In this document: piece after piece, positions 15,976-54,230 of the stretch
Layout: every line of letters begins with the position of its first letter
Numbering within the stretch: position 1 is the first letter of the stretch
Origin: an uncultured bacterium
GTDB taxonomy: Bacteria; Sysuimicrobiota; Sysuimicrobiia; Sysuimicrobiales; Sysuimicrobiaceae
NCBI GenBank assembly: GCA_964437095.1
Contig: CAYTFH010000002.1
Span: 14,627-78,626, forward strand
Length of the DNA: 64,000 nucleotides
Direction of reading: 5' to 3'
Position numbers and translations under genes: made by a program
The notes under the pieces: generated by a model
Told to the model about the DNA's origin: nothing
Database searches by the model: none
Seen by the model: only the letters and a program-made list of their open reading frames with translations

Positions 15976-16875
15976 ATGGAGTTCAAGGACTACTACCGGA
16001 TCCTGGGGGTGGATCGCAAGGCCGACAGCAAGGCCATCGGGGAGGCTTTCCGTCGGCTCGCCCGGCAGTACCACCCGGACGTGAACAAGGACCCCCAGGC
16101 CGCGGAGAAGTTCAAGGAGATCAACGAGGCCTACCAGGTCCTCAGCGACCCGGAAAAGCGCGCCCGCTACGACCAGATGCTGGAGCTGCGGGAGCGCGGG
16201 ATGCCCTGGGAGCAGGTGTTCACCCGACCGGGGACGGGCCGCACCGCGGAGTGGACGTGGTTCGGGGAGCCCCAGGATTTGTTCGGCGGGTTCTCCGACT
16301 TCTTCCGCCGGTTCTTCGCAGACCTGGGAGGCCCCTTCGAGGCGGAAGGGCTGTGGGGCCAGCAGCCCCTCACCGCCACCGCGGAGATCAGCCTGGAGGA
16401 GGCCTTCCGCGGCACCGAGCGGGAGCTGGTGGTGCGCAACGGGTTCCCGCGGCGCGTAACGGTGCGGATCCCACCCGGGGTCCACACAGGCCAGAAGGTG
16501 CGGGTGCGGGGTGCGGGCGGGGACGTGTACGTGGAAGTCCGGGTGCAGCCCCACCCGGTGTTCTCCCGGGAGGGCGACGACCTGGTGTGCGAGATCCCCA
16601 TCTGCCTCACGGAGGCCCTGCTGGGCGCGGAGATCGAGGTCCCCACCCTGGAGGGCAAGGTGAAGGTGCGGGTCCCGCCCGAGACCCAGCAGGGGCAGGT
16701 GTTGAGGCTGCGGGGCCTGGGGATGCCGAAGCTGCGGGGCTCCGGGCGCGGGGACCTGCTGGTCCGGCTGCGGGTGGTGCTGCCGCGGGGGTTGAGCGTG
16801 GAGGAGCGGCGGTTGGTGGAGCAGCTGGCCAAGCTCCGGCGCGAGAACCCGCGGGCTGCCATGGGGCTCAAGTAA
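15976..16875 (+). CDS. DnaJ-class co-chaperone without zinc finger (CbpA-like)
   Basis: [35 protein letters not shown]...[20 protein letters not shown] domain plus C-terminal DnaJ substrate-binding domains. No CxxCxGxG repeats. Confidence 0.85.
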
Positions 16876-16898
16876 GGCGTGGAATGGGGAGGAGACCG

Positions 16899-28948: not shown

Positions 28949-30013
28949 ATGAGCTACGTGCTGGACGACCCGCACCGCCGGAAGGCCTTGGACCCCCAGG
29001 ACATGGTGGGCCTGGTGTTGCGCACCCCGGAGTTCCTGCAGGAGGGGTGGAAGTTGGGGAGTGCGCTCCCGATCCCCGACCCGGAACCGCCCCGGCACCT
29101 CCTGGTCCTCGGCATGGGCGGATCGGGCATCGGGGGCGACCTGTTGCGGGGGCTCCTGTACGGCCGGGCCCGGTTCCCCGTGACCGTGGTCAAGGACTAC
29201 TCCCTGCCCGCGTGGGTGGGGCCGGGGGCGATGGCCTTCGCATGCTCGTACTCGGGCAACACGGAGGAGACCCTGAGCGCGTACCAGCTGGCCCGTGCCG
29301 CGGGCGCGCGGTGCGTGGCGGTCACCTCCGGGGGCAAGCTGGCGGAGCGCGCGGCGCGGGACGGAGTCCCGTGGGTGAGAGTCCCCCCGGGGCTTCCACC
29401 GAGGGCGGCTCTGGGCTACCTGCTGGGTCCCATGCTGGCGGTGGTGCACCGTTGGGGCTGGGTGGACGGCCTGCAGCAGGAGGTGGAGGAGGCGGTCCCC
29501 CTGCTCCAGGAGCTGGCGCGACGGTGGGGCCCGGAGGTGGCCACCCCGGACAACCCGGCCAAGCAGCTGGCCCGGGACCTGGTGGCGCGGGTGCCCGTGG
29601 TGTACGCGGCGTCGCGCCTGTCGGAGGCGGCGGCCCTGCGGTGGAAGACCCAGCTGAACGAGAACAGCAAGGTGTACGCCACGTGGAACGCCTTCCCGGA
29701 GCTCAACCACAACGAGACCGTGGGCTGGGCGCTGGCGGGACAGCCGGAAGGGCTGCTGGCGGTGGTGGTGCTCCGGGACCCGGACGACCCGCCGAGGCTG
29801 GTCCGGCGGGTGGAGGTGACCCGGGAGTTGGCGTTCGGTCCGGCGGCCGCCGTCCACGAGGTGCGGGCGACCGGGCGGGCCCCGTTGAGCCGGGTCCTGT
29901 CCCTCGTCTTGTTCGGGGATCTGGTGAGCGTGTATCTTGCATACTTGAGCGAGGTGGACCCCACCCCCGTGACGGTGATCGACGAGCTCAAGCGTCGCCT
30001 GGAGAGCCGGTAG
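28949..30013 (+). CDS. bifunctional phosphoglucose/phosphomannose isomerase (SIS domain, archaeal-type PGI/PMI)
   Basis: LLVLGMGGSGIGGDL SIS motif and a PGI/PMI family C-terminus. Confidence 0.7.
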   Translation: MSYVLDDPHRRKALDPQDMVGLVLRTPEFLQEGWKLGSALPIPDPEPPRHLLVLGMGGSGIGGDLLRGLLYGRARFPVTVVKDYSLPAWVGPGAMAFACSYSGNTEETLSAYQLARAAGARCVAVTSGGKLAERAARDGVPWVRVPPGLPPRAALGYLLGPMLAVVHRWGWVDGLQQEVEEAVPLLQELARRWGPEVATPDNPAKQLARDLVARVPVVYAASRLSEAAALRWKTQLNENSKVYATWNAFPELNHNETVGWALAGQPEGLLAVVVLRDPDDPPRLVRRVEVTRELAFGPAAAVHEVRATGRAPLSRVLSLVLFGDLVSVYLAYLSEVDPTPVTVIDELKRRLESR

Positions 30014-30033
30014 GGCGAGGAGGCGGACAGCGG

Positions 30034-31140
30034 ATGGCGCGGGTGTACCTGGAGAACGTGACCAAGCGGTTCGGGAACGTGGTGGCGGTGAACCGGGTGA
30101 CCCTGGAGATCCCGGACCGGCAGTTCACGGTCCTGGTGGGCCCCTCCGGGTGCGGCAAGACCACCTGCCTGCGCCTCATCGCGGGGTTGGAGGAGGTGAC
30201 GGAGGGGAACGTCTACATCGGCGACCGCCTGGTGAACGACGTGCCCCCCAAGGACCGGGACATCGCCATGGTGTTCCAGAACTACGCCCTGTACCCCCAC
30301 ATGACGGTGTACGAGAACATGGCCTTCGGCCTGCGGCTGCGGAAGTACCCCAAGTCGGAGATCGACCGCCGGGTGCGGGAGGCCGCGGCCATGCTGGGCA
30401 TCGAGAACCTCCTGGACCGCAAGCCCCGGCAGCTGTCGGGGGGCCAGCGGCAGCGGGTGGCGGTGGGGCGGGCCATCGTGCGGGAGCCCCAGGTGTTCCT
30501 CATGGACGAGCCCCTCAGCAACCTGGACGCGGCCCTACGGGTGCAGACCCGGGCGGAGCTGAAGAAGCTGCACGCCCGCCTGCAGACCACCACCGTGTAC
30601 GTCACCCACGACCAGGTGGAGGCCATGACCATGGGGGACCGCATCGTGGTCATGCGGGACGGGGTGGTGCAGCAGGTGGACACGCCCATGAACCTGTACG
30701 AGAAGCCCGCCAACCTGTTCGTGGCGGGCTTCATCGGCAGTCCCTCCATGAACTTCGTGCCGGGAGAGGTCCGGCAGAAGGACGGGGCCCTGGTGTTCGA
30801 CGCGGGGACGTGGCACGTGCCCATCCCGCCCGACCTGCACGAGTACGTGCGGCCGTGGGAGGGACGGCGGGTCATCTTCGGGATCCGGCCCGAGCACATG
30901 GAGGACGTGGCCCTACGCAACGGCCAGCTTCCGCCCTCCTTCGTCACCCTGCGGGCCAAGGTGGAGGTGCACGAGCCGTTGGGGTCGGACGTGATCCTCT
31001 ACCTGGACGCGGGCGGGCACTCCCTGGTGGCCCGGGTGGACGCCCACAGCCGGGCCAAGATGGGCGACGAGGTCACCGTGGCCATGGACCTGCGCAAGAT
31101 GCACCTGTTCAACGCCCAGACCCACGAGGCCATCGTCTGA
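30034..31140 (+). CDS. sugar ABC transporter ATP-binding protein (MalK/MsmX/UgpC type), orphan
   Basis: GPSGCGKTT, LSGGQRQRVA and LMDEPLSNLD motifs plus a TOBE C-terminal domain. There are no adjacent permease or SBP genes. Confidence 0.9.
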   Translation: MARVYLENVTKRFGNVVAVNRVTLEIPDRQFTVLVGPSGCGKTTCLRLIAGLEEVTEGNVYIGDRLVNDVPPKDRDIAMVFQNYALYPHMTVYENMAFGLRLRKYPKSEIDRRVREAAAMLGIENLLDRKPRQLSGGQRQRVAVGRAIVREPQVFLMDEPLSNLDAALRVQTRAELKKLHARLQTTTVYVTHDQVEAMTMGDRIVVMRDGVVQQVDTPMNLYEKPANLFVAGFIGSPSMNFVPGEVRQKDGALVFDAGTWHVPIPPDLHEYVRPWEGRRVIFGIRPEHMEDVALRNGQLPPSFVTLRAKVEVHEPLGSDVILYLDAGGHSLVARVDAHSRAKMGDEVTVAMDLRKMHLFNAQTHEAIV

Positions 31141-32147: not shown

Positions 32148-33110
32148 GTGTCCCACGGTGCCGTGGCGGTGGACCTGGGAGGGAGCTGGATCCGGGCGGG
32201 CGTGGTGGGCCCGGACGGCGCGGTGCGGGAGGTGCTGCGCGTCCCCACCCCGCAGGCCGGGCCCGATGCGGTGGCGGAGGCCATCGCCCACCTGGTGCGG
32301 CAACTGGGCCCGGTGCCGCCGGGAAGGGTGGGGGTGGCAGTACCGGGGCCGCTCAGCGTGCGGGAGGGGGTGGTGTTCGAACCGCCCAACCTGCGGGGCT
32401 GGAGGGACGTACCCCTGCAGCGGATGCTGGAGGAGCGCTTGCGCCGGCCCGTGGTCCTGGAGAACGACGCCAACGCCGCGGCGTCGGGGGAGTGGTGGAA
32501 GGGTGCGGGTGCCGGGAGCCGCCACCTGGTCTACCTCACCGTGAGCACGGGGGTGGGAGGAGGCCTGGTGCTGGATGGGAAGCTGTACCGCGGGGCGAGC
32601 GACACCGCGGGGGAGATCGGCCACGTGGTGGTGGAGCCCGACGGCCCGTTGTGCTCATGCGGCCGGCCCGGGCACCTGGAGGCGGTGGCCTCCGGCCCCG
32701 CCATCGCCCGGTGGACGCTGGAACGCCTGCGGGAGGGCCGGGCTTCGGTGCTGGCGGGCAAGGAAGCGCTGTCCAGCCGGGACGTGGCGGAAGCCGCGGA
32801 GCGCGGCGACGGGCTGGCGCAGGAGGCTTTCCAGCGGGCGGGCCGGTACCTGGGCCTAGCCGTGGCAGGGCTACTGAACCTGCTGAACCCGGAGGTGGTG
32901 GTCATCGGCGGAGGGGTGGCCCGGGCGGGGCGGTGGCTGTTCGACCCGCTGCTGCAGGCGGCGCGGGAAGCCAGCTTCGACCGTCCGTGGAAGGCCGCCC
33001 GCATCGTGCCCGCGGCCCTGGGGGACCACGCGGGGCTGGTGGGGGCGGCGTACGTGGCCATGGAGCAGGAAGGAGGGATGCGCGGTGGACCGGGTCACGC
33101 TGAACACTGA
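32148..33110 (+). CDS. ROK family glucokinase
   Basis: AVDLGGSWIRAGVV, ENDANAAASGE and a CSCGRPGHLE zinc motif. GTG is 6 nt after AGGAGG. Confidence 0.85.
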   Translation: MSHGAVAVDLGGSWIRAGVVGPDGAVREVLRVPTPQAGPDAVAEAIAHLVRQLGPVPPGRVGVAVPGPLSVREGVVFEPPNLRGWRDVPLQRMLEERLRRPVVLENDANAAASGEWWKGAGAGSRHLVYLTVSTGVGGGLVLDGKLYRGASDTAGEIGHVVVEPDGPLCSCGRPGHLEAVASGPAIARWTLERLREGRASVLAGKEALSSRDVAEAAERGDGLAQEAFQRAGRYLGLAVAGLLNLLNPEVVVIGGGVARAGRWLFDPLLQAAREASFDRPWKAARIVPAALGDHAGLVGAAYVAMEQEGGMRGGPGHAEH

Positions 33111-33684
33111 AGGCGGCGTGCTGGAGCTGGTGCGCGCCGACATCACCCAGCAAGCCACCGACGCGGTGGTGAACGCCGCCAACCCCACCCTCATGGGCGG
33201 CGGAGGGGTGGACGGAGCCATCCACCGGGCTGGTGGTCCGGCCATTCTCGAGGAGTGCAAGCGCATCGTGCAGACCCTGCCGGGCCGGCGGCTGCCCCCC
33301 GGTGAAGCGGTGATCACCACCGGGGGAAACCTGCCCGCGCGCTACGTGATCCACACCGTGGGACCGGTGTGGCGGGGAGGCGGGGAGGGGGAGGACGAGG
33401 TTTTGGCTCGGGCGTACCGGTCCAGCCTGAAGCTCGCCCGGGAGCGGGGGTTGCGGTCCGTGGCCTTCCCGTCCATCAGCACGGGTGCGTACGGGTTCCC
33501 CGTGCCGCGCGCGGCCCGGGTGGCCCTTGGGGCGATCCTGGAGTTCTTGCGCGCGAACCCCGGGGCGTTCGACGTGGTACGGATGGTGCTCTGGAGTGAG
33601 GACGACTTCCGCGCCTACCGCCAGGCCCTGGAGGAGCTGCGGGCTACAGGAGGAGGCGGACGGGGTTCTCCAGCAAGCGCTTGA
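33085..33684 (+). CDS. macro domain protein (YmdB-like O-acetyl-ADP-ribose deacetylase)
   Basis: ADITQQATDAVVNAANPTLMGGGGVDGAIHRAGGP...VIHTVGPVW matches the YmdB/Af1521 macro family. It overlaps the glucokinase 3' end by 26 nt and E2 convergently. Confidence 0.8.
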   Translation: MDRVTLNTEGGVLELVRADITQQATDAVVNAANPTLMGGGGVDGAIHRAGGPAILEECKRIVQTLPGRRLPPGEAVITTGGNLPARYVIHTVGPVWRGGGEGEDEVLARAYRSSLKLARERGLRSVAFPSISTGAYGFPVPRAARVALGAILEFLRANPGAFDVVRMVLWSEDDFRAYRQALEELRATGGGGRGSPASA

Positions 33685-34834
33685 CCTCCACCAGGAACTG
33701 GGCCGCGCCCACGCCATCCGTAACCCGGTGGTCCGCGGACACCGTGAGCTGCAGCACCGGGCGCACCACCACCTGGCCGGACCGGACCACGGGCCGGTCC
33801 TGGGCCCGGCCCACGGCCAGGATGCCCGCCTGAGGGGGGTTGATGATGGCCACGAAGTTCACCACGTCGTACATGCCGAGGTTGCTCACGGAGAAGGTGG
33901 CGCCGGTGTACTCCTCCTGGCGCAGGCGCTTGGCGTGGGTCCCTTCGATCAACCGCCGCGCCTCCCGGGCCAGCTGCAGCAGGGGCAGACGGTCCGCGTC
34001 CCGCAGCACCGGCGCGATGAGCCCGTCGGGGGTGGCCACCATGATCCCCAAGTGGACCCGCCGGAACCGGCGCAGGGTTCCGTCGTCCAGCACGTGGGCG
34101 TTGAGGTCGGGGTGGTTGCGCAACGCCAGGGCGGTGGCCTTCAGCACCAGGTCGTTGACCGTCACCCGGCCTTCCTCTCCCAGAGCCTCCTGCAGCTGCT
34201 CCCGCAGCTCCAGCGCCCGAAAGAGGTCCACCTCCGCGGTGACGTAGAAGTGGGGCACGTGCTGCTTGCTGTGGGTCACCACCCGGGCGATGGCCTGGCG
34301 CATCCGGCTCGGGGGCACGTCCTCGTACTCTGCCTCCGCCTCCGCCCGAAGGGGCGCCGCCCGGCGCTCCAGGTAGGCCAGCACGTCCCGCTCCACGATG
34401 CGGCCTCCCGGGCCCGTGCCCCGGACCTGGGACAGGTCCACGCCGTGCTCGGAGGCGATGCGCCGCGCCAGCGGGGAAGCCTTGACCCGCGCGGGAGGCG
34501 CTTCCGGAGGCGGAGCCGGCGGCGACGGCTGCGCTGCGGGGGCGGCGGGCGCGGTGGGGGGTGCGGCCTCCGGGGCGGGAGCGGGAGCTTCCGCGGGCTG
34601 CCCGTCGATGTACGCGATCACCTGCCCCACGGGCACCACCTGGCCTTCTGGAACCGCGATGTGCAGGACCCCGGAGGCTTCCGCCTCCAGCTCCACGTTC
34701 ACCTTGTCCGTCTCGATCTCCACCAGCACCTCGCCCTTTTCCACGCGGTCGCCGTGGCGCTTGCGCCACGAGAGGACCTTGCCCTGCGTCATGGCGTCGC
34801 CCATCTTGGGCATGATGACCTCGGCCATGCCCAC
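33644..34834 (-). CDS. 2-oxoacid dehydrogenase E2 (dihydrolipoamide acetyltransferase)
   Basis: Lipoyl domain (EIETDKVNVELEAEASGVL), Pro/Ala linker, E3-binding domain, and catalytic domain with DHRVTDG. Confidence 0.9.
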   Translation of the reverse strand: MGMAEVIMPKMGDAMTQGKVLSWRKRHGDRVEKGEVLVEIETDKVNVELEAEASGVLHIAVPEGQVVPVGQVIAYIDGQPAEAPAPAPEAAPPTAPAAPAAQPSPPAPPPEAPPARVKASPLARRIASEHGVDLSQVRGTGPGGRIVERDVLAYLERRAAPLRAEAEAEYEDVPPSRMRQAIARVVTHSKQHVPHFYVTAEVDLFRALELREQLQEALGEEGRVTVNDLVLKATALALRNHPDLNAHVLDDGTLRRFRRVHLGIMVATPDGLIAPVLRDADRLPLLQLAREARRLIEGTHAKRLRQEEYTGATFSVSNLGMYDVVNFVAIINPPQAGILAVGRAQDRPVVRSGQVVVRPVLQLTVSADHRVTDGVGAAQFLVEVKRLLENPVRLLL

Positions 34835-34844
34835 CTCCCGTGCG

Positions 34845-35819
34845 CTACCGCAGCACCCGGCGGATGGCGCGCTGGATGCGCTCCTCGTCCGGGAAAGCCA
34901 GCTTCTCCAGGTTGCGGGCGTACGGCGCGGGCACGTCCTCCCCCGTGACCCGCTCCACGGGAGCGTCCAGGTCGTCGAAGCACCGCTCGTAGATCCCCGC
35001 GGCCACCTCCGCCGCGGCCCCGAACAACGGCCACTGCTCCTGCACCACCACCGCCCGGTGGGTCCGGCGCACCGACTCCGCCACCGTGTCCATGTCCAGG
35101 GGCCGGAGGCTGCGGAGGTCGATCACCTCGCACTCCACGCCCTCCCGGGCCAGGTCCTCCGCCACCGCCAGAGCCAGGTGCAGCATGCGGCTGTACGCCA
35201 CCACCGTCACGTCCCGGCCCCGCCGCACCACCGCGGCCCTGCCGAAGGGGACGGCGGACTCACCCTCCGGCACCGGCCCTTTGATCCCGTACAGGGCCGC
35301 GTGCTCCAGGAAGATCACCGGGTCGTCCGCCCGCATGGCGGTGCGCAGCAACCCCTTGGCGTCCGCGGGCGTGGCCGGGGCCACCACCCGCAGGCCGGGG
35401 AAGTGGCCGTAGAAGGACTCCAGGGATTGCGAGTGCTGCGCGGAGAGCTGAACCCCGGCGCCGTTGGGCCCGCGGATGACCAGGGGGACGGACACCTGGC
35501 CGCCGGAGAAGTAGCGCACCTTGGCGGCGTTCTGCAGAATCTGGTCCGCGGCGGGTAGGGAGAAGTTCCAGGTCATGACCTCCACCACGGGCCGTAGCCC
35601 CAGCATGGCCATGCCGATGGCCGCGCCGATGAACCCCAGCTCGGAGATGGGGGTGTCTACCACCCGCTTGGGGCCGTACCGCTCCAGGAGGCCCTCCGTG
35701 ACGCGGAAGGTGCCCTGGTAGACCCCGATGTCCTCTCCCAGGAGCAACACCCGGGGGTCGCGGTCCATCTCCTCCACCAGGGTGGACCGCAGGGCTTCGC
35801 GGTAGGTCATCTCCGGCAC
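34845..35819 (-). CDS. pyruvate/2-oxoacid dehydrogenase E1 component beta subunit
   Basis: Transketolase-like pyrimidine-binding and C-terminal domains; 324 aa. Confidence 0.9.
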   Translation of the reverse strand: MPEMTYREALRSTLVEEMDRDPRVLLLGEDIGVYQGTFRVTEGLLERYGPKRVVDTPISELGFIGAAIGMAMLGLRPVVEVMTWNFSLPAADQILQNAAKVRYFSGGQVSVPLVIRGPNGAGVQLSAQHSQSLESFYGHFPGLRVVAPATPADAKGLLRTAMRADDPVIFLEHAALYGIKGPVPEGESAVPFGRAAVVRRGRDVTVVAYSRMLHLALAVAEDLAREGVECEVIDLRSLRPLDMDTVAESVRRTHRAVVVQEQWPLFGAAAEVAAGIYERCFDDLDAPVERVTGEDVPAPYARNLEKLAFPDEERIQRAIRRVLR

Positions 35820-35823
35820 GGCC

Positions 35824-36819
35824 TCACCCTCCGTACACGTCCCGGTACAGCTCCTCGGGTGGCGGTTCCGGGCTGGACTCCGCGAAGGCCACCGCCTCCT
35901 GCACGCGCCCCTGCGCCCAGACCTCCACCTCCGCCACCCGGGCGTCGTCCAGGACTCCGGCAGCCCTGAGCCGCCGCTCCAGCAGGAGGATGGGGTCCCG
36001 CTGCCGCCACCGTTCCACCTCCTGCCGGTCCCGGTAGGGCTGGAACAGGTCCGCGGCCCCGTGCCCGGAGAAGCGGTAGCTGAGGGTTTCCACCGCGTAC
36101 GGGCGGCCCGTGCGCCGGACCTGCTCCACCACCCGCCGCGCTACCTCGTACACCTCCACCACGTCCATGCCGTCGCACCGCTCGTGGGGGATGTCGTACG
36201 CGTCGAACCGTCGGTGCAGCTCCGGTACCGCGGAGGCCCGTTCCACGGAGGTCCCCATGCCGTACTGGTTGTTCTCCACCACGAACACCACCGGACACAT
36301 GCCCTCCCGGCCCCACAGGCCTGCCAGGTTGGCCGCCTCGTGAAGGGCTCCGCTGTTCATGGCGCCGTCGCCGAAGAAACACAGGCACACCCGGTCCGTG
36401 CCCTGGTACCGGAGGGCGTACGCCGCGCCCACCGCCAGCGGCATGTGGCCGCCCACGATCCCGTAGCCCCCGTAGTTGCCCCGGGCGGTGTCGAACAGGT
36501 GCATGGACCCCCCCTTGCCCTTGCACGTGCCCGTGACCTTGCCGTACAGCTCCGCCATCACCGCGCCCGGGTCGGTGCCCCGGACCAGGGTGTGCACGTG
36601 GTCCCGGTAGGACACGAAGAACACGTCGTCCGGTCGGGCGGCGGACAGAAAGCCCAACGGGACCGCCTCCTGCCCGATGGCCACGTGCAGGTAGCCGCCG
36701 ATCTTCCCCCGCCGGAAGCTGCGTTCCGTCTGCTCCTCGAACCGCCGGCAGAACAGCAGCGTCCGGTACCACTCCAGCAGGGTGTCCACCGGCACCGCCA
36801 CCGGCCGCGCGTGCTGCAT
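35824..36819 (-). CDS. pyruvate/2-oxoacid dehydrogenase E1 component alpha subunit
   Basis: ThDP-binding GDGAMNSG...ENNQYG motif. ATG is 4 nt after GAGGAGGA; the alternative GTG at 36840 would overlap accC. Confidence 0.85.
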   Translation of the reverse strand: MQHARPVAVPVDTLLEWYRTLLFCRRFEEQTERSFRRGKIGGYLHVAIGQEAVPLGFLSAARPDDVFFVSYRDHVHTLVRGTDPGAVMAELYGKVTGTCKGKGGSMHLFDTARGNYGGYGIVGGHMPLAVGAAYALRYQGTDRVCLCFFGDGAMNSGALHEAANLAGLWGREGMCPVVFVVENNQYGMGTSVERASAVPELHRRFDAYDIPHERCDGMDVVEVYEVARRVVEQVRRTGRPYAVETLSYRFSGHGAADLFQPYRDRQEVERWRQRDPILLLERRLRAAGVLDDARVAEVEVWAQGRVQEAVAFAESSPEPPPEELYRDVYGG

Positions 36820-36836
36820 GGGTCCTCCTCGTTCCG

Positions 36837-38201
36837 TCACGACCCGCGGCCCAGGGCGCTCAGGTCCACGCGCCGCTGGACGAAGTTGGTGTACACCTCC
36901 CCGCGCCGGAAGAAGGCGTTGTCCAGGATGGCGCGGTGCAGGGGCAGGGTGGTGCGCACACCCGTGATCTCGAACTCCCTCAGGGCCCGCTCCATCCTGG
37001 CGATGGCCTCCTGCCGGTCCCGCCCCCAGGCCACCACCTTTGCCACCAGTGAATCATAGTACGGCGGGATGGTGTAGCCCGCGTACACGTGGGTGTCCAC
37101 CCGGATCCCGGGCCCGCCCGGAGGGATGAAGGACACCACCCGGCCCGGGGAGGGACGGAAGTCGTGGGCGGGGTCCTCCGCGTTGATCCGGCACTCCAGG
37201 GCGTGCCCGCGGAACGCCACGTCCTTTTGCGAGAAGCGCAGCCGCTCGCCCGCGGCGATGCGGATCTGCTCGGCCACCACGTCCAGGCCCGTGATGGCCT
37301 CCGTCACGGGGTGTTCCACCTGGATGCGGGTGTTCATCTCGAGGAAGTAGAAGTTCTCCTGGCGGTCCACCAGGAACTCCACGGTGCCCGCGTTCACGTA
37401 CCCGATGGCCTGCACCAGGCGCAGTGCTGCCCGGTGCAGCTGGGCCCGCAGGCGGCCGGACAGGCCCGGGGCAGGGGCTTCCTCCAGCAGCTTCTGGTGG
37501 CGCCGCTGGATGGAGCAGTCCCGCTCGCCTAAGTGCACGGCGTTGCCGCGGCTGTCCGCCAGGACCTGGACTTCCACGTGGCGGGGTTCTTCCAGGTACT
37601 TCTCCAGGTACACCTCGCCGCTCCCGAAGGCAGCCTCCGCCTCCCGCGATGCGGTCTGCAGGGCGCGGCTCAGGTCCTCCCGGTTGTGCACCACCCGCAT
37701 CCCCCGGCCCCCGCCGCCCGCGGAGGCCTTCACCAGTAAGGGGTAGCCGAGCCGGTCGGCCAGACGCAGGGCCTCCCGCTCGTCCCGCACGGGCCCTGGG
37801 CTGCCAGGCACCACGGGCACGCCGGCCCGTTGGGCGATCTCCCGTGCCCGGGCCTTGTTGCCCATGGCTTCGATGGCCTCCGGGGGCGGCCCGATGAAGG
37901 TGATCTTGGCGTCGCGGCAGATCTCCGCGAACCGGGGGTCCTCCGCCAGGAAGCCGTAGCCGGGGTGGATGGCGTCCACGCCCAGCAGCTCCACGGTGCT
38001 CAGGATGTTGGGGATGTTCAGGTAGCTGTCCGCGGCGGGGGGCGGGCCGATGCAGAAGGCCTCGTCGGCCAGCCGCACGTGCAGGCTGTCCCGGTCCGCC
38101 TCGGAATACACCGCCACGGTGCGGATGCCCAGCTCCCGGCAGGTGCGGATGACCCGCACCGCGATCTCGCCCCGGTTGGCCACGAGAACCTTCCTGAACA
38201 T
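36837..38201 (-). CDS. accC: acetyl-CoA carboxylase biotin carboxylase subunit
   Basis: MFRKVLVANRGEIAVRVIR with ATP-grasp and biotin carboxylase C-terminal domains. Confidence 0.95.
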   Translation of the reverse strand: MFRKVLVANRGEIAVRVIRTCRELGIRTVAVYSEADRDSLHVRLADEAFCIGPPPAADSYLNIPNILSTVELLGVDAIHPGYGFLAEDPRFAEICRDAKITFIGPPPEAIEAMGNKARAREIAQRAGVPVVPGSPGPVRDEREALRLADRLGYPLLVKASAGGGGRGMRVVHNREDLSRALQTASREAEAAFGSGEVYLEKYLEEPRHVEVQVLADSRGNAVHLGERDCSIQRRHQKLLEEAPAPGLSGRLRAQLHRAALRLVQAIGYVNAGTVEFLVDRQENFYFLEMNTRIQVEHPVTEAITGLDVVAEQIRIAAGERLRFSQKDVAFRGHALECRINAEDPAHDFRPSPGRVVSFIPPGGPGIRVDTHVYAGYTIPPYYDSLVAKVVAWGRDRQEAIARMERALREFEITGVRTTLPLHRAILDNAFFRRGEVYTNFVQRRVDLSALGRGS

Positions 38202-38211
38202 TTCCGAAGGG

Positions 38212-38676
38212 CTACCCGTGGGGGTCGATGAGGAACAGGGGCTGCCCGTACTCCACCGGGGCGCCGTTCTCCGCCAGCACCCGCACCACCCGCCCGGAGA
38301 CCTCGGCCTGGATCTCGTTGAACATCTTCATGGCCTCGATGATGCACAGGGTCTGCCCTGCCTCCACCCGGTCGCCCTCCTGCACGAAGGGTGGCTGGTC
38401 GGGGCCCGGGGCCCGGTAGAAGGTCCCCACCATGGGCGCGGTCACGGGGACCCAGTGGGGGCTGGGCGCGTCGGCCGCCGGCGCCGCGGGGGCGGCGGCG
38501 GGCGCGGGGGCAGGCGCGGGCGCCGTGAGAGCAGGGGGCGGGGCGCTGCGGGGCGCCTTGCGGATGGCTACCCGCAGGTGGCCCGCCTCCACCTCCAGTT
38601 CCGTGATGTCCGCCTCGCTGGCGATGCGCACCAGCTCGCGGATCTCGTCGAAGTTCAGGTGCTGCTCGCCGGACAT
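38212..38676 (-). CDS. accB: acetyl-CoA carboxylase biotin carboxyl carrier protein
   Basis: Ala/Pro linker and the EAMKMFNEI biotinylation motif. Confidence 0.9.
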   Translation of the reverse strand: MSGEQHLNFDEIRELVRIASEADITELEVEAGHLRVAIRKAPRSAPPPALTAPAPAPAPAAAPAAPAADAPSPHWVPVTAPMVGTFYRAPGPDQPPFVQEGDRVEAGQTLCIIEAMKMFNEIQAEVSGRVVRVLAENGAPVEYGQPLFLIDPHG

Positions 38677-38696
38677 GCCACCTCCTCGGCCGGGGG

Positions 38697-39683
38697 CTAT
38701 GCGGGCGCTGCGGGGCCTGGTTCCACCCCGAACCGGCCCATGCGCCGGTACTTATCGTACCGGCGGCGCCGCCGCTCCTCGGGAGGAAGATCCCGCACCT
38801 CCCGCAGGTGGCGGCTCAGGGCCTCGTGCAGGGCCGCCGCCGCCCGGTCGGGGTCCAAGTGCGCGCCGCCCAGGGGCTCGGGCACCACCTCGTCCACCAC
38901 GCCCAGCTCCAGCAGGTCCCGAGCGGTGAGCTTGAGGGCCGAGGCGGCCTCCTCCTTCCGGTCGGAATCCCGCCACAGGATGGCGGCACACCCCTCCGGC
39001 GGAATGACAGAGTAGATGGCGTACTGCATCATGAGCACCCGGTCCCCCACGGCCACGGCCAGGGCCCCGCCGCTGCCGCCTTCGCCCGTGATGGCCACCA
39101 CCACGGGGCACCGCAGCTCCAGCATGGTGAGGATGCTGCGGGCGATGGCCTCCGCCTGCCCGCGCTGTTCCGCCTCCACGCCCGGGTACGCCGCGGGGGT
39201 GTCCACCAGGGAGATCACGGGCAGCCCGAGTTTGTCCGCCAGGCGCATGATCCGCATGGCCTTGCGGTACCCCTCAGGGTTGGGCATGCCCCACCGGCGG
39301 TGCACGTTCTCCCGGGTGTCCTTACCCTTGTGGTGGCCCACCACCGCCACCGGCTGCCCGTCCAGGCGGGCGAGGCCGCAGAACATGGCGGGGTCGTCGC
39401 CGAACAGGCGGTCCCCGTGCAGCTCCACCACGTCCGTGAACACCTTCTCCAGGTAGTCGCCCAGCTTCGGCCGCTGCGGGTGGCGGGCGGCCTGCACCAC
39501 CTGCCAGGCCGTGGGCTCGTGCCACAGGCCCGCCCGCACGGCCTCGATCCGGGCCCGCAGGGCCTGCACCCGCGACGACAGGTCGGGCACCTGCTCGGCC
39601 GGGGTGGCCTGCAGCTGTGCCAGCTGCTCTTCGAGCTCCTGCAGCTCCCGCTCCTGTTGGGCGCGGTCAGGAGGGCTGGTCAA
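38697..39683 (-). CDS. accA: acetyl-CoA carboxylase carboxyltransferase alpha subunit
   Basis: Carboxyltransferase alpha family (GEGGSGGALA). Confidence 0.9.
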   Translation of the reverse strand: MTSPPDRAQQERELQELEEQLAQLQATPAEQVPDLSSRVQALRARIEAVRAGLWHEPTAWQVVQAARHPQRPKLGDYLEKVFTDVVELHGDRLFGDDPAMFCGLARLDGQPVAVVGHHKGKDTRENVHRRWGMPNPEGYRKAMRIMRLADKLGLPVISLVDTPAAYPGVEAEQRGQAEAIARSILTMLELRCPVVVAITGEGGSGGALAVAVGDRVLMMQYAIYSVIPPEGCAAILWRDSDRKEEAASALKLTARDLLELGVVDEVVPEPLGGAHLDPDRAAAALHEALSRHLREVRDLPPEERRRRRYDKYRRMGRFGVEPGPAAPA

Positions 39684-40575
39684 GGACCACCTCCCCGCGA
39701 TCCCCTCCCATGAGCCGCAGCAGGCGGGCCACGGTGGCCTTGAGCTCGGACCGGGGCACGATGAGGTCCACGAAGCCGCACCGCAGGAGGAACTCCGCGG
39801 TCTGGAACCCTTCCGGGAGCTTCTGGCGGATGGTCTGCCCGATGACCCGTGCCCCCGCGAACCCGATGAGGGCGCCCGGCTCCGCCACGTGCACGTCCCC
39901 CAGCATGGCGAAGGAGGCGGTGACCCCGCCCGTGGTGGGGTCGCACAGCACGGACACGAAGGGTAGCCCCGCGGCGTGCAGGCGGCTCGCCGCGGCCACG
40001 GTCTTGGCCAGCTGCATCAGGGACAGCACGCCCTCCTGCATGCGGGCACCGCCGCTGGCGCTGCAGGTCACCACGGGCAGCCGCAACGCCACCGCCCGCT
40101 CGAACATCCGGGCCACCTTCTCCCCCACCACGGAGCCCATGCTGCCACCCAGGAAGTCGAAGTCCAGCACCCCCACCGCGGCCTCCACGCCCGCGATGCG
40201 GCCACGGCCCGTGAGCACCGCCTCCCGCCGGCCCGTCCTCTGGACCGCCTGGCGGTAGCGCTCCGCGTACTCCGGGAACTGCAAGGAATCCAGGGAGACC
40301 AGGTCCGCGTCCCACTCCTCGAAGGTGCCCTCGTCCACCAGCAACTGCAAACGTTCGGGGCCGCTGAGCCGGTGGTGGTAGCCGCACTTGGGGCAGACCT
40401 TGAGGTTGCGTTCCAGCTCCTTGCGGTACACCAGCTGGGCGCACCGCGGGCACTTGGCCCACAGCCCCGCGGGGATGTCCCGCCGCTGTATGGACTGGTA
40501 CTTGGGCCGGCGCAGCCAGTTGAGCACGGTTTCCGGTTTTCGGGTCCTGCGCGTCGGAATCCTGCCCGGCCCCAC
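39667..40575 (-). CDS. accD: acetyl-CoA carboxylase carboxyltransferase beta subunit
   Basis: N-terminal CPRC...CPKC zinc ribbon and a carboxyltransferase beta domain. Confidence 0.9.
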   Translation of the reverse strand: MGPGRIPTRRTRKPETVLNWLRRPKYQSIQRRDIPAGLWAKCPRCAQLVYRKELERNLKVCPKCGYHHRLSGPERLQLLVDEGTFEEWDADLVSLDSLQFPEYAERYRQAVQRTGRREAVLTGRGRIAGVEAAVGVLDFDFLGGSMGSVVGEKVARMFERAVALRLPVVTCSASGGARMQEGVLSLMQLAKTVAAASRLHAAGLPFVSVLCDPTTGGVTASFAMLGDVHVAEPGALIGFAGARVIGQTIRQKLPEGFQTAEFLLRCGFVDLIVPRSELKATVARLLRLMGGDRGEVVLDQPS

Positions 40576-40646
40576 AATGGAGGCGAGGAGGGTGTCCGAG
40601 CCGTGCGCGTGGGCCGACCGGAGGGAACCGGAAGGGAGGTGGAAGG

Positions 40647-41720
40647 ATGCGCGGGAGGGCGTGCCTTTTGCTGCTGGCCCTGGCGGGTCTCGCGGGAGTG
40701 GGACCCCGCGCGGGCGCGCAGACGTCGGCAGGGGACCTGGTGGAAGCGTACCGCTGGCGGCTGGAGAACGCCGCGGGCGGCCTGGTGGAGGGCAGCGAGG
40801 ACGGAGGCCGCACGTGGAGGACCTTGGGGCGCGTGGTGCGGCCCGCGGTGGCTACGGCCGTGGGCTTCACCGCCAGCCGCTGGGGACGGCCGGGGACCGT
40901 GGTGGCCACGGGAGCCAACGCGGTGCACGTGAAGGTGGCCGACACGCCCGACGGCCGCGGGGTCATCTTCACCCTGTGGCCCCGGGGAGCGCCGTGGTCG
41001 CCGCACGTGATCCTCACGGACATCCCGGGTGGACGCGGGATCTTCGGCGGGCGGTTCAGCGCCTTCGTGGGCAACCCCGTCCTGGTGGAAGGACCCGCGG
41101 GGACGTCGCCGGTGGCGGGCTGGACCCCGGTGGTGGGAGCGCGCCTGGTGGTGGTGGTCCAGCGGCCGGCCCGCACGTCTGTGGAGCTAGAGCTCGAGAA
41201 CCGGTTCGGAGGTCTGGTGCGGGCGCGGTTTACGGACGGATCGGAGGAGCTGGTGGCGGTGGTGCTGCGGCCCGTGGCGGGCGTGGGGCGGTTCGAGGGG
41301 ACGCAGTACGTGGGCATCGGGCGGGTGCGGGCCAACCACCCGGGCGTCATCGACGTGTCCACCTCGCCCGTGGGGCAGGTGGGCGGGTTCCAGATCATCC
41401 CCCGGGACCACGCCCACAGCCCGGAGCTGGTGGGCGCGGTGCTGGGGACCCAGTGGATGGTGGTGGGACCCGTGAACCCCCTGGACCCCTCCCCGCAGGG
41501 AACGGCGCCCCTGTTCTCGGCCTTCATCGCTCCCCGCTACGACCCCGACGACCTCTCCGACGAGGAGTGGCAGCGGCGAGTGAGCGAGCGGTACCTGGTG
41601 ATGTGCCGGGTGGACGCCGGGCCCTGGCAGCTGTTCCCTCCCCTGGTGGGTCGGCGGGACGACGCCCTGCTGCGGGTGACCCACATCAAGATCCTCCTGC
41701 CCCTGTGGTCGTGGCCGTGA
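40647..41720 (+). CDS. hypothetical secreted protein (signal peptide, no recognised domain)
   Basis: ORF with ATG after GGAAGGGAGGTGGAAGG and a cleavable signal LLLLALAGLAGVGPRAGAQ. Confidence 0.45.
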   Translation: MRGRACLLLLALAGLAGVGPRAGAQTSAGDLVEAYRWRLENAAGGLVEGSEDGGRTWRTLGRVVRPAVATAVGFTASRWGRPGTVVATGANAVHVKVADTPDGRGVIFTLWPRGAPWSPHVILTDIPGGRGIFGGRFSAFVGNPVLVEGPAGTSPVAGWTPVVGARLVVVVQRPARTSVELELENRFGGLVRARFTDGSEELVAVVLRPVAGVGRFEGTQYVGIGRVRANHPGVIDVSTSPVGQVGGFQIIPRDHAHSPELVGAVLGTQWMVVGPVNPLDPSPQGTAPLFSAFIAPRYDPDDLSDEEWQRRVSERYLVMCRVDAGPWQLFPPLVGRRDDALLRVTHIKILLPLWSWP

Positions 41721-42973: not shown

Positions 42974-44314
42974 TCAGCAGCTCCTGGGGCGGCCCTCCCA
43001 CTCCGCCACCCACGCCCGCAGGAGCTCTTCGAGGGTGGGGGAGCTCACCTCCTCCAGGTCGTACGTGACCTTGGCCGCGGGCTTGTCCAGCCGCAGGAGG
43101 CGGCGCAGGTCCACGGGGGTGCCCACCACCACCGCGTCCGCTTCCGCCCTCCGGAGGGTCTGCTCCAGGTCCCGCAGCTGCGGCCCGCCGTACCCCATGG
43201 CGGGTACGACCTGGGTGAGGTGCGGGTAGTCGCGGAACACCTGCTGCAGCGTGCCCACCGCGTAGGGCCTGGGGTCCACCACCACCGCCCCGAGCCGGCG
43301 GGCGGCCAGCAGCCCCGCGCCGTACGGCATCTCCCCGTGGGTCACCGTGGGGCCGTCCTCCACCACCACCACCCGGCGGCCCGCCACCAGCTCCGGCCGG
43401 TCCAGGCGGATGGGGGACGCAGCTTCCACCACCCCCGCCTGGGGGTTCGCAGCGCGGACGTTGCGCTCGACCTCTTCCACCGCCTCCCGGGGCGCGGTGT
43501 CCACCTTGTTGACCACCACCACGTGGGCCATGCGCAGGTTGGTCTCCCCAGGGTGGTAGCGGAGCTCGTGACCGGGCCGGTGCGGGTCCGCCACCACCAC
43601 GAACCGATCGGGCCACACGAAGGGGAAGTCGTTGTTGCCCCCGTCCCACACCAGCACCTCCGCCTCGGCTTCCGCCTGCCGGAGGACCTGTTGGTAGTCC
43701 ACCCCCGCGTACACCACGATCCCCAGGGCCACGTGGGGCTCGAACTCCTCCCGCTCCTCCACGGTCAACCCGGCCCGGTCCAGGTCCTCCCAGGTGGCGA
43801 AGCGCTGCACCGCCTGGGAAGCCAGGTCGCCGTACGCCATGGGGTGGCGGACCACCACCACCCGCTTGCCCCACGTTCGCAACAGCCGCGCCAGCTTGCG
43901 GGCGGTCTGGCTCTTGCCGCTTCCGGTCCGCACCGCTCCCACCGCCACCACGGGAACCCCGACCCGCAGCATGGTGTCCTGGGGGCCCAGCAGACGCACG
44001 CTGGCGCCCGCGGCCAGAGCCCGGGAAGCCACGTGCATCACGTGTTCGTGGGACACGTCGCTGTAGCTGAACACCACCTCCCGCACGCGCTCCCGGCGGA
44101 TCCACGCCTCCATCTCCTCCTCGGGCACGATGGGGATGCCGTCCGGGTAGCCCGGTCCGGCCAGCTCCGGCGGGTAGCGGCGGCCCGCCAGGTTCGGGAT
44201 CTGGGTGGCGGTGAACGCCACCACCCGGTAGTCCGCGCGCCCGCGGAAGTACACGTTGAAGTTGTGGAAGTCGCGGCCGCCCGCTCCCAGGATGAGGACG
44301 GGGACGGGCTCCAT
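42974..44314 (-). CDS. cyclic 2,3-diphosphoglycerate synthetase-like P-loop protein
   Basis: 447 aa with N-terminal VLILGAGGRDFHNFN and an internal Walker A (AVRTGSGKSQT), recalled as characteristic of the archaeal cDPG synthetase family. The assignment is from memory. ATG is 5 nt after the argS stop. Confidence 0.45.
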   Translation of the reverse strand: MEPVPVLILGAGGRDFHNFNVYFRGRADYRVVAFTATQIPNLAGRRYPPELAGPGYPDGIPIVPEEEMEAWIRRERVREVVFSYSDVSHEHVMHVASRALAAGASVRLLGPQDTMLRVGVPVVAVGAVRTGSGKSQTARKLARLLRTWGKRVVVVRHPMAYGDLASQAVQRFATWEDLDRAGLTVEEREEFEPHVALGIVVYAGVDYQQVLRQAEAEAEVLVWDGGNNDFPFVWPDRFVVVADPHRPGHELRYHPGETNLRMAHVVVVNKVDTAPREAVEEVERNVRAANPQAGVVEAASPIRLDRPELVAGRRVVVVEDGPTVTHGEMPYGAGLLAARRLGAVVVDPRPYAVGTLQQVFRDYPHLTQVVPAMGYGGPQLRDLEQTLRRAEADAVVVGTPVDLRRLLRLDKPAAKVTYDLEEVSSPTLEELLRAWVAEWEGRPRSC

Positions 44315-52224: not shown

Positions 52225-53298
52225 GTGGCGGCGCAGGAGCGGCTGGAGCGTCTGGAGCAGCGGTACGAGGAGCTGGGCCGGCTGCTGGGGGACCCGTCCG
52301 TCCTGGCGGACCCCCAGCGGTACCGCCAGCTGGCCAAGGAGCACGCGGAGCTGGAGGAGGTGGTGGGGAGGTGGCGGGACCTGCGCCGGCTGGAGGAACA
52401 GAGGACGCAGGTCCAGGCCCTACTGCAGGACCCCGACCCCGCGGTCCGGGAACTGGCCGAGCAGGAGCTGGAGGAACTGCAGCGGCGCAGGGAGCGTCTG
52501 GAAGGCGAGCTGAAGGAGTTGCTGGCGCCCCGGGATCCCTACGACGACCGGAACATCCTCGTGGAGATCCGCCCCGCGGCGGGAGGAGAGGAGGCGGCGC
52601 TGTTCGCCGCGGACCTGCTCCGGATGTACACGCGGTACGCGGAGCGACGGGGCTGGAAGGTGGAAGTCCTGGAGCTGCACCCCTCCGACCTGGGCGGGGT
52701 GAAGTCTGCCACCCTGAGCATCGCGGGGAAGGGGGCCTACAGCCGGCTGAAGTACGAGAGCGGGGTGCACCGGGTGCAGCGGGTGCCCGAGACGGAGGCC
52801 GCGGGCCGCATCCACACCTCCACCGCCACGGTGGCGGTGCTCCCGGAGGCGGAGGAGGTGGAGGTGGAGATCCGGCCGGAGGAGCTGGAGGTGGACACCT
52901 TCCGGGCCGGGGGCGCGGGCGGCCAGAACGTCAACAAGGTGGAGACCGCGGTCCGGATCCGGCACCTACCCACGGGGATCGTGGTGACGTGCCAGGACGA
53001 GCGGTCCCAGCACCAGAACCGCGAGAAGGCTCTGCGGATCCTGCGGGCGCACCTGCTGGAGCTTCGGCGGAGGGAGCAGCAGCAGCGGATCGCCGCGGCC
53101 CGCCGGCAGCAGGTGGGGACCGGCGAGCGCAGCGAGAAGATCCGCACCTACAACTTCCCCCAGAACCGGGTGACGGACCACCGCATCGGGCTCACCCTGC
53201 ACCGCCTGGACGCCATCCTGGACGGAGACCTGGACCCCATCCTGGACGCCCTGGTCAGCCGGGCGCGGGCGGAGGCGGAGCAGGTGACGGCCCGTTGA
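52225..53298 (+). CDS. prfA: peptide chain release factor 1
   Basis: PxT-region context and GGQ motif ([25 protein letters not shown]). GTG start 8 nt after GGAGGG. Confidence 0.95.
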
Positions 53299-54230
53299 AG
53301 GACCTTTCCGCCGGACAGCCGACACCCCACGCGCCGACCAGCGTGCGGGAGGCGTACCTCTGGGGGCGGGAGCACCTGGAGGCCTGCGGGGTGGAGGCGG
53401 CGGCCCTGGAGGCGGAAGTGCTCCTGCGCCACGCCCTCGGTGTGGACCGCGCGCAGCTGTACGCCCGCTGGCCCTGCCCGCTGCCGGAGGGTGCGTGGCG
53501 GCGGTACGTGCAGCTGTTGGAGGAGCGGGCCGCGGGCCGCCCGCTGGCGTACGTGGTGGGTGAGCGTGAGTTCTTCGGCCTGCGCTTCGCCGTGGACCCG
53601 CGGGTGCTGGTCCCTAGGCCCGAGACGGAGCTTTTGGTGGAGGTGGTCCTGCGCGCCACGCAGGGCGTAACGTCGCCCGTGTACGTGGAGGTGGGGACGG
53701 GCAGCGGGGCGGTGGCCGTGGCCCTGGCGGTGCACCGGCCGGACGCCACGGTGTACGCCACCGATCTTTCCGCGGCCGCGTTGGCCGTGGCGGTGGAGAA
53801 CGCCCGGCGACACGGGGTCCTGGAGCGGATGCGCCTGCTGGAGGGCGACGCGTTGGCACCGGTGCTGCAGGCCGGCGTCCGGGCCCACGCGGTGGCCTCC
53901 AACCCTCCCTACGTCCCCCCACAGGCGCGGGCCGAGCTGCCCCGGGAGGTTCTGGCGGAACCGGAGGTGGCGGTGTTCGCCCCGGGACCCCGAGGAGTAG
54001 AGCTGCACGAGCGCATCGCCGAACAGGCCCGCAGGGTTCTCCTGCCCGAAGGCTTGATCGCCCTGGAGGTGGCGGCCAAGTGGGACCAGGCCCGGACCGT
54101 GGCGGAGACGCTGTCCCGCCTCGGATACCGAGACCCGCAGGTGGTACGGGACCTGAGCGGCCTCGAGCGGGTGGTGGTGGCGAGGCAACCCCGCTCCGTT
54201 GCGGGTGAGGGCGGGCTGGACGTACAGTAG
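53295..54230 (+). CDS. prmC: release factor glutamine N5-methyltransferase PrmC/HemK
   Basis: NPPY catalytic motif (VASNPPYVP) and SAM-binding [15 protein letters not shown] start overlaps the prfA stop; start uncertain. Confidence 0.85.

Follow-up and report, generated by a model that had tools for sequence, protein, structure and literature searches.

A seven-gene cluster joining acetyl-CoA carboxylase genes to pyruvate dehydrogenase-like E1 and E2 genes in the phylum Sysuimicrobiota

In Escherichia coli, accA and accD, two of the four genes of the heteromeric acetyl-CoA carboxylase (ACC), are unlinked and only accB and accC form an operon, and in Bacillus subtilis accBC and accDA are separate. 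All four acc genes are found in one operon in streptococci, where the fab operon contains the order ...accB-fabZ-accC-accD-accA (PMC4996995); complete clustering of the acc genes is therefore not new in itself. The association of a carboxylase with a 2-oxoacid dehydrogenase has been described in mycobacteria. There, the genes accD1-accA1-fadE19-Rv2499c-citE-bkdA-bkdB-bkdC are co-transcribed under the control of the repressor BkaR, and transcripts were detected by reverse transcription PCR across a gap of 211 bp. This unit was once annotated as an acetyl/propionyl-CoA carboxylase followed by pdhABC; it really encodes a methylcrotonyl-CoA carboxylase and a branched-chain 2-oxoacid dehydrogenase (BCKDH) (PMC3920632; PMC4347857). 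Here, we describe another combination, carried by a stretch of 64,000 nucleotides (nt) from an uncultured bacterium of the family Sysuimicrobiaceae, phylum Sysuimicrobiota (contig CAYTFH010000002.1, positions 14,627 to 78,626; this whole stretch is hereafter called the window). In this window, the genes of a complete ACC are directly followed by those of the E1alpha, E1beta and E2 components of a dehydrogenase related to pyruvate dehydrogenase (PDH). The seven genes had been singled out in an earlier examination made from the letters alone (the sequence-only reading).

The ACC of the window has the same four subunits, domains and cofactor motifs as the E. coli-type heteromeric enzyme. In contrast with E. 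coli and B. subtilis, its four genes follow one another without interruption as D-A-B-C, and do so throughout the phylum. The streptococcal acc genes stand among fab genes, that is, with the downstream pathway, whereas the partner of the acc genes in the window unit is the upstream enzyme that supplies acetyl-CoA; no fab genes were found in the window. On the dehydrogenase side, PDH of the alphaproteobacterial and mitochondrial type likewise has an alpha2beta2 E1 and an E2 made of lipoyl, E3-binding and catalytic domains. However, the E1beta of the window is devoid of the N-terminal lipoyl domain found in some alphaproteobacterial PdhB. Moreover, compared to the alphaproteobacterial pdh operon, the window set has no adjacent lpd and no visible promoter region of its own, the latter because it abuts accC. 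The likeness to the mycobacterial unit resides in the joint presence of a biotin-dependent carboxylase and of an E3-less E1alpha-E1beta-E2 set, with E3 to be provided in trans. Nevertheless, the mycobacterial unit has a two-subunit carboxylase and intervening genes of the beta-oxidation type, whereas in the window a four-subunit ACC is followed by the dehydrogenase genes with nothing between them. In the searchable literature, the term accDABC was encountered only in overexpression or engineering papers, dealing with the production of 3-hydroxypropionate, fatty acids or lipopeptides. These engineered sets, in E. coli and Bacillus, are artificial, whereas the window unit is natural, chromosomal and belongs to a thermophilic lineage; the logic is the same. 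No natural ACC-PDH operon was found in the full-text literature, as represented by open-access papers and preprints, and the description of the phylum, which stresses the reductive glycine pathway, mentions neither PDH nor ACC (PMC11604079). The architecture of the operon is apparently undescribed, its ACC and PDH parts being ordinary. We propose, with a probability of about two in three, that the locus is a composite operon formed by a single insertion, from which ACC and a PDH-like enzyme would be co-expressed.

The G+C content of the window is 72% throughout and reading frames were picked according to their G+C content at third codon positions (GC3). Between 33644 and 40575, the minus strand contains exactly seven open reading frames (ORFs) with a high GC3 (0.93-0.96). 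They occupy positions 33644-40527 and encode, in this order, AccD, AccA, the biotin carboxyl carrier protein (BCCP), AccC, E1alpha, E1beta and E2 (Table 1). Pfam and NCBIfam searches and reading of the sequence bear out the seven identities and the placement on the minus strand given by the sequence-only reading. All four acc proteins exceed the equivalog cut-offs of NCBIfam: AccD scores 371.9 with TIGR00515 (cut-off 317.45), AccA 433.4 with NF004344 (cut-off 357), BCCP 157.9 with TIGR00531 (cut-off 115.2) and AccC 722.4 with TIGR00514 (cut-off 626.5). AccD combines the Pfam domains Zn_ribbon_ACC (PF17848) and Carboxyl_trans (PF01039), with an N-terminal Cys4 zinc ribbon of the form CPRC...CPKC, AccA matches the ACCA domain (PF03255, E=4.8e-130) and BCCP has a biotinyl domain with the biotinylation motif EAMKM at residue 114. 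The carboxyltransferase is split between AccD and AccA, and BCCP and the biotin carboxylase are both free-standing, as in a four-subunit ACC. On the strength of the equivalog-level matches and of the conservation of the locus in the whole phylum, the carboxylase of the window would turn acetyl-CoA into malonyl-CoA. As for the three following genes, E1alpha carries the E1_dh domain (PF00676, E=1.6e-74) with the thiamine diphosphate motif GDG...NN at residue 150 which, together with a transketolase-like E1beta, corresponds to an E1 of the alpha2beta2 type. E2 comprises one Biotin_lipoyl domain (PF00364), an E3_binding, or peripheral subunit-binding, domain (PF02817, 3.1e-19) and the catalytic 2-oxoacid_dh domain (PF00198, 1.6e-77). 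Its lipoyl-lysine motif TDKV and its catalytic motif DHRVTDG, of the DHRxxDG form, are intact.

Table 1. Position of the seven genes and of the adjoining elements in the window.
Feature	Coordinates	Strand	Remarks
accD, carboxyltransferase beta subunit of acetyl-CoA carboxylase	39667..40527	-	286 aa from GTG 40527; open frame reaches GTG 40575
accA, carboxyltransferase alpha subunit	38697..39683	-	328 aa, TTG start, GGAGGTG upstream
accB, biotin carboxyl carrier protein	38212..38676	-	154 aa, GAGGAGGTG upstream
accC, biotin carboxylase	36837..38201	-	454 aa, three biotin carboxylase domains (Pfam)
pdhA-like E1alpha	35824..36819	-	331 aa, ATG 36819, GAGGAGG upstream
pdhB-like E1beta	34845..35819	-	324 aa, Transket_pyr (PF02779) and Transketolase_C (PF02780)
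pdhC-like E2 dihydrolipoamide acyltransferase	33644..34828	-	394 aa, ATG 34828, three domains
Divergent intergenic region upstream of accD	40528..40646	-	conserved non-coding block at about 40528-40580
Macro-domain gene (O-acetyl-ADP-ribose deacetylase family)	33085..33684	+	Pfam Macro 1.6e-45; NF001664 219.5, cut-off 200

Judged by sequence comparison, E1 and E2 are closest to the PDH of mitochondria and alphaproteobacteria. The nearest solved relative of E1alpha is human PDH E1alpha with 236 bits, against 126-139 for BCKDH, and those of E2 are the mammalian PDH E2 with 293 bits, against 164 for the E2 of 2-oxoglutarate dehydrogenase (OGDH) and 116 for that of BCKDH. For both proteins, the similarity to characterised PDH exceeds that to BCKDH or OGDH. 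E1beta reaches 464.1 with NF006667, the PDH E1 beta subfamily, well over the cut-off of 321. Among annotated plasmids, the best match of E1alpha is the alphaproteobacterial pdhA of a pdhA-pdhB-pdhC-lpdA cluster (45.6% identity, 196 bits); annotated E1alphas of the acetoin type have 35% identity and 124 bits, and those of the BCKDH type 26-28% identity. Some of the scores speak against the assignment to PDH. Thus, the top NCBIfam match of E1alpha, TIGR03182 (PDH_E1_alph_y), is narrowly missed with 386.4 for a cut-off of 393.85, and that of E2, TIGR01349, stays short of the equivalog level with 366.1 for a cut-off of 445. In addition, a generically annotated plasmid E1alpha-E1beta-E2 set follows closely behind the true pdhA (188 bits for its E1alpha, against 196).

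These values leave room for an acetoin dehydrogenase, or another PDH-like 2-oxoacid dehydrogenase, which would still feed acetyl-CoA to ACC. In such a model, the shortfall of E1alpha and E2 with respect to the PDH equivalog cut-offs would be explained, as would the proximity of uncharacterised E1alpha-E1beta-E2 sets of Rhizobium plasmids to pdhA; the PGAP label of E1beta is merely "alpha-ketoacid dehydrogenase subunit beta", and the PDB matches include no solved acetoin dehydrogenase for comparison. We nonetheless consider this model rather unlikely, since the nearest characterised relatives of E1alpha and E2 are PDH proteins with a margin of about two-fold in bit score, the top NCBIfam matches are PDH models, that of E1beta being above its subfamily cut-off, and the JGI annotation of members of the cluster is PDH E1 beta. 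No acoR, acoX or acoL-like genes lie nearby, and the similarity to acetoin-type sequences is not the best one, an argument that rests on annotation and is accordingly weak. Pyruvate is the probable substrate of E1. The sequence-only reading had asked whether E1 would be specific for pyruvate, acetoin or branched-chain substrates: the comparison favors PDH over BCKDH, and makes an acetoin dehydrogenase or another PDH-like enzyme less probable than PDH.

The BCKDH scores also bear on a reading in which a catabolic carboxylase would be combined with a BCKDH, as in the degradation of leucine by the mycobacterial accD1-accA1-...-bkdABC unit. A documented precedent exists for this, with a biotin carboxylase and an E3-less E1alpha-E1beta-E2 set placed under BkaR. 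It was rejected because the ACC of the window has four subunits and is not of the two-subunit alpha/beta methylcrotonyl-CoA carboxylase type; an alpha subunit joining biotin carboxylase and BCCP, a carboxyltransferase beta subunit of about 530 residues and the accessory genes of the mycobacterial type were not found in the window. Furthermore, the unit contains no gene for an acyl-CoA dehydrogenase, a hydratase or a lyase, BCKDH E1alpha and E2 score about half as high as PDH, BCKDH-type plasmid genes remain at 26-28% identity, and accDABC occupies the same housekeeping neighbourhood throughout the phylum. A leucine-catabolic unit is thus extremely improbable.

The distribution of the fused arrangement was studied in 160 loci centred on E1alpha homologues, 80 of them taken from species-representative genomes and 80 from metagenomes. 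In 15 loci, representing 13 distinct contigs, accC is immediately upstream of E1alpha, with E1alpha identities of 67-93%. No accC was found within 400 nt of E1alpha in 113 loci from other lineages having at least 1.5 kb of upstream sequence, and 32 of the 160 loci were too short for the accC-E1alpha linkage to be judged. A first tblastn pass, run over the full length of the 80 genome loci, had located acc genes only in the six fused ones. The earlier statement that acc genes are not usually linked to PDH is therefore supported by the 113 informative loci. The closest genomes are metagenome-assembled genomes of Sysuimicrobiota (CSP1-3), among them GCA_031459915.1 (L003), the type material of Ca. 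Tepidifontimicrobium thermophilum, of GTDB family HRBIN32, with an E1alpha identity of 91%. The window is accordingly attributed to a relative of this bacterium within HRBIN32. A metatranscriptome of an enrichment that contains Ca. Tepidifontimicrobium thermophilum is public (SRR27732999, PRJNA973840; PMC11604079). Family assignments were taken from the supplement of the phylum description, according to which the members of HRBIN32 are hot-spring bacteria known only from metagenomes (PMC11604079). The core fused group retains the complete set of seven genes in unchanged order, with 11-29 nt between accC and E1alpha. The closest relatives are fully syntenic with the window: the genes of ArgS, HtrA and an unknown 357-aa protein stand on one side of the cluster, and those of Macro, ROK, Band7, a MalK-type ABC ATPase and PGI on the other. 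It must be counted against our proposal that, with so wide a synteny, conservation within the core clade mostly reflects shared ancestry and amounts to one evolutionary event.

More can be learned from the sister lineages. Homologues of AccC at 73-78% identity were found in eleven loci from seven lineages, all of them with accD-accA-accB-accC and without pdh genes (sister loci: L161/L162; L163, of family CSP1-3; L164 and L165, of 13-1-40CM-64-14; L166; L167-L169; L170-L172). Their flanks are the same as those of the window, with HtrA upstream and Band7, MalK and PGI downstream. Since the sister families have accDABC only, the four-gene accDABC is considered ancestral to the phylum. Thus, of the originality first seen in this locus, the fused layout stands, being kept in 13 contigs, and accDABC itself is not special, as it occurs phylum-wide. 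The place after accC is taken in the sister loci by a convergent ROK kinase gene, by a histidine kinase and a response regulator, by a metallophosphatase/solute-binding block, or directly by Band7. This slot behaves as a rearrangement hot spot beside a very stable operon. In GCA_021324295.1, the acc genes (L167) and pdhABC (L010) are on separate contigs, and it is in L010 that the PDH of the window has its nearest outgroup, at 72%.

Two trees were compared. In a neighbour-joining tree of AccC and Band7 (648 columns), all fused loci, including L006, the most divergent of them, group in one clade (198 of 200 bootstraps) to the exclusion of all unfused loci, and single-gene trees agree. In the tree of the concatenated E1alpha, E1beta and E2, L006 and the unfused Centralia lineage join the fused clade in 200 of 200 bootstraps. 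This grouping is what a relocation of the phylum's own PDH operon inside the genome would predict, as opposed to its acquisition from a distant source. As read from these trees and gene orders, the derived event is the insertion of pdhABC downstream of accC, between accC and ROK, which occurred once; the core clade also gained the macro gene at this place. L006 deserves particular attention. Its junction gaps reach 82, 74 and 36 nt; the first of these spacers, which separates accC from E1alpha (1189-1270 of L006), contains TATAGAAT, a -10-like box. L006 may have PDH genes that keep their own promoter. These features of L006 do not favor a single transcript. It may also be observed that, in the same spacer, TTGATATAGAAT, which holds the -10-like box, is followed by a G+C-rich inverted repeat. 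Taking the gap lengths together, it looks as if adjacency came first and compaction later, the direction of change being deduced from the sequences.

The possibility has to be weighed that the juxtaposition is neutral, pdhABC having landed once in a hot-spot slot and having persisted by inertia. In agreement with this, the content of the slot after accC differs across the sister lineages, the fusion arose once and the neighbourhood of the core clade is syntenic overall. However, all members of the fused clade that were sampled keep accC next to pdhA, even at 67% E1alpha identity, although the gene content past E2 has changed, L006 having neither Macro nor ROK. Moreover, the spacers have been reduced to the length of a ribosome-binding site and the products catalyse consecutive reactions. 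Neutrality is, in our opinion, a rather improbable explanation.

We come now to transcription. All genes of the unit are co-directional, their junctions are short or overlapping, and their order is kept in the 13 distinct contigs. The stop codon of accD (39667) and the TTG start of accA (39683) delimit a 17-nt overlap. The following gaps are 20 nt (accA-accB), 10 nt (accB-accC), 17 nt between the stop of accC (36837) and the ATG of E1alpha (36819), with GAGGAGG inside, 4 nt (E1alpha-E1beta) and 16 nt between E1beta and the ATG of E2 (34828). The range of -17 to +20 nt, the accD/accA overlap and the 17-nt accC-E1alpha junction were already in the sequence-only reading and are found again here. 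In 11 relatives of the core clade, the junction gaps range from -23 to +31 nt. Shine-Dalgarno (SD) sites precede six of the seven genes; it is a point of some weight on the other side that no recognisable SD sequence was found upstream of accD. With gaps of at most 20 nt, the seven genes are very likely co-transcribed.

The assignment of three start codons calls for comments. For accD, the long start GTG 40575 was rejected, since only from residue 23 onwards does the long ORF align with the accD profile; it is also disfavoured by indels of the relatives upstream of GTG 40527 that are not multiples of three. GTG 40527 is the likely true start. For E1alpha, GTG 36840, which overlaps the stop codon of accC, was dropped in favor of ATG 36819 because of the GAGGAGG located upstream, of the agreement with an independent gene call and of the gaps of the relatives, which are not multiples of three. 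A public contig with an identical E1beta, for which genes were called independently, indeed has E1alpha, E1beta, E2 and Macro of 331, 324, 394 and 199 aa. For AccC, a public protein of 448 aa, identical to that of the window, starts six codons later, which would correspond to GTG 38183, with AGGAAGG upstream. ATG 38201 has a poor SD and yields the conserved N-terminus MFRKVLVANRGEIA, with which the tblastn matches of relatives begin from the first residue.

The only non-coding stretch of the unit that is long enough for a promoter or an operator is the 119-nt divergent region upstream of accD. In an alignment of eight close relatives, the conserved block at about 40528-40580 corresponds to CCATTGTG...GGCAGGATTCCG...GACCCGAAAA, and the conserved blocks upstream of accD are interrupted by indels whose length is not divisible by three. 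This block is a candidate promoter, operator or leader. A sigma-70 promoter, or a leaderless start, was sought in it and no convincing -35/-10 spacing was seen; the region upstream of accD has no fold better than those of shuffled sequences. The lack of a recognisable promoter there weighs against our proposal. A consensus scan of the minus strand from 33000 to 41000 gave no promoter-like match, and no terminator-like match at the junctions. The value of these scans is limited. On the one hand, sigma-70 consensus scans carry little meaning in an uncultivated phylum with 72% G+C. On the other hand, no terminator was recognised either at the 3′ end of E2, where the operon ends, and for this reason the terminator scan is uninformative. 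None of the six junctions folds better than shuffled sequences (z from +0.3 to +1.1), and a scan of the whole window with Rfam returned no RNA element. Over the last 20 codons of accC, conservation at third codon positions is not raised (0.62, for a gene mean of 0.68). An internal promoter may yet be present inside the coding sequence of accC, which would again be unfavorable to a single transcript.

Known bacteria require PDH and ACC in very unequal molar amounts. This consideration, together with the poor reliability of promoter consensus scans in the phylum, leads to a model with two transcription units, in which a promoter in the 3′ part of accC, or attenuation of read-through, would separate the two halves and the close packing would result from genome compaction. 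The 82-nt spacer of L006 with its -10-like box goes in the same direction, as the PDH genes may have carried a promoter along. In the window and in 11 other core contigs, however, the accC-E1alpha spacer measures 11-29 nt and is filled by the SD sequence. The scan of the minus strand, the last codons of accC and the folding of the junctions, which gave no promoter-like match, no excess conservation and no structure better than shuffles, respectively, also argue against two units, and we regard this model as unlikely.

The sequence-only reading had stressed that no lpd follows E2. A search for the redox motif of Lpd confirmed that there is no lpd anywhere in the 64 kb of the window. The first motif pattern had no match in the window or in the first 80 loci and a looser one gave two spurious matches only. 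A revised pattern retrieved five genuine lpd genes in metagenome loci, which serve as a positive control. The absence is not unusual, as lpd adjoins E2 in 5 of the 172 fetched loci. The phylum description reports PdhD (K00382) from 102 of 112 genomes; there is as a rule a single copy, encoded elsewhere, which is expressed and counted with the glycine cleavage system (PMC11604079). A pdhABC set that lacks E3 and receives it in trans is usual for this type of PDH and does not distinguish the window.

In the light of these data, the following scenario may be envisaged for the composite operon. The first four genes, ancestral to the phylum, encode a housekeeping heteromeric ACC of the E. coli type. 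The pdhA-pdhB-pdhC operon native to the phylum would have been moved, in the common ancestor of the HRBIN32/Sysuimicrobiaceae-type lineage, to the position just after accC. In the clade of the window, the spacers would then have shrunk to 11-29 nt, which leaves space for a ribosome-binding site only. An mRNA of about 6.9 kb would be made from a single promoter, situated in the 119 nt that precede accD, the downstream genes being each translated from its own SD site. PDH would convert pyruvate into acetyl-CoA and ACC would convert acetyl-CoA into malonyl-CoA for type II fatty-acid synthesis, so that the production of both enzymes would be coupled. The succession of acetyl-CoA formation and carboxylation, put forward in the sequence-only reading, fits the identities of the genes. 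E3 would be supplied in trans from the lpd of the genome, present in about one copy and shared with the glycine cleavage system, with E2 retaining its E3-binding domain. Such a coupling may bring a selective benefit. It is tempting to speculate that, in organisms proposed to fix CO2 by the reductive glycine pathway, of which pyruvate is the product, the branch leading to lipids is in this way tied to a single regulatory input. One step further, PDH and ACC, which both rely on swinging arms (lipoyl and biotinyl, respectively), might physically associate. Acetyl-CoA would then pass by channelling from E2 to the carboxyltransferase, and the biotin carboxylase could take up again the CO2 given off by E1, the whole forming a carbon-neutral module from pyruvate to malonyl-CoA. 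This last idea is very unlikely. If true, such a metabolon would operate in an autotroph that obtains its carbon as pyruvate from the reductive glycine pathway.

Beyond the operon, the macro-domain gene is convergent with E2 and shares 41 nt with the 3′ end of the latter, in line with the figure of about 40 nt given before. Every core fused locus has the macro gene beside E2; neither the unfused sister loci nor L006 possess it. Its overlap with the preceding ROK kinase gene measures 26 nt, and these two genes seem to be co-transcribed on the plus strand. In other bacteria, macro domains reverse the ADP-ribosylation of a lipoyl carrier protein (SirTM/GcvH-L type, PMC4518038); no sirtuin-family match was found among the annotated genes of the window. 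In three separate assemblies of the Centralia-type lineage (L167, at 5670-7523, and also L168 and L169), a single gene of 617 aa, with the Zn ribbon and both the beta and alpha carboxyltransferase parts, is called in place of accD and accA. This looks like a natural AccD-AccA fusion at the place where the window has a 17-nt out-of-frame overlap. On the other side of the region upstream of accD, the divergent 357-aa gene (40647-41720, plus strand) has no Pfam or NCBIfam match; it is found between HtrA and accD only in the closest relatives, with 78-84% identity, and is absent from the sister families.

Some other genes of the window may be mentioned. The MalK-type ABC ATPase (about 30030-31140, plus strand) lies inside an artefactual ORF of 697 aa (29047-31140) and was missed by simple ORF filtering; it was recognised by its GC3 phase, its C-terminal sequence and the synteny with relatives. 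Directly downstream of argS, a 446-aa gene (42974-44314, minus strand) is similarly contained in an artefactual ORF of 1363 aa. It shows a weak match to the CobW/HypB/UreG P-loop family (20.5 bits, cut-off 20.7), and the same gap is observed in close relatives. A heat-shock cluster at 12617-19505 (plus strand) is composed of a MerR-family regulator, dnaK, grpE, dnaJ and a ClpB-like AAA+ gene. The ORF listed for ClpB (16251-19505) runs over dnaJ in a different frame, as ClpB in fact starts further downstream. Finally, two high-GC3 ORFs of 346 and 415 aa (53148-54188 and 58574-59821, both on the minus strand) have no Pfam match.

The locus challenges no established principle and would not surprise a specialist. 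Its interest is that it offers a clean and datable example of the growth of an operon by capture of the preceding step of a pathway. The accDABC unit alone, the long spacers of L006 as an intermediate and the compacted spacers of 11-29 nt are all still observable within one phylum. The arrangement mirrors the malonyl-CoA supply that engineers have built by hand, and provides a thermophilic, naturally balanced cassette of PDH and ACC. At the level of the lineage, the fused unit is a simple synteny marker for HRBIN32/Sysuimicrobiaceae, and it may help in reading the flow of carbon in Sysuimicrobiota.

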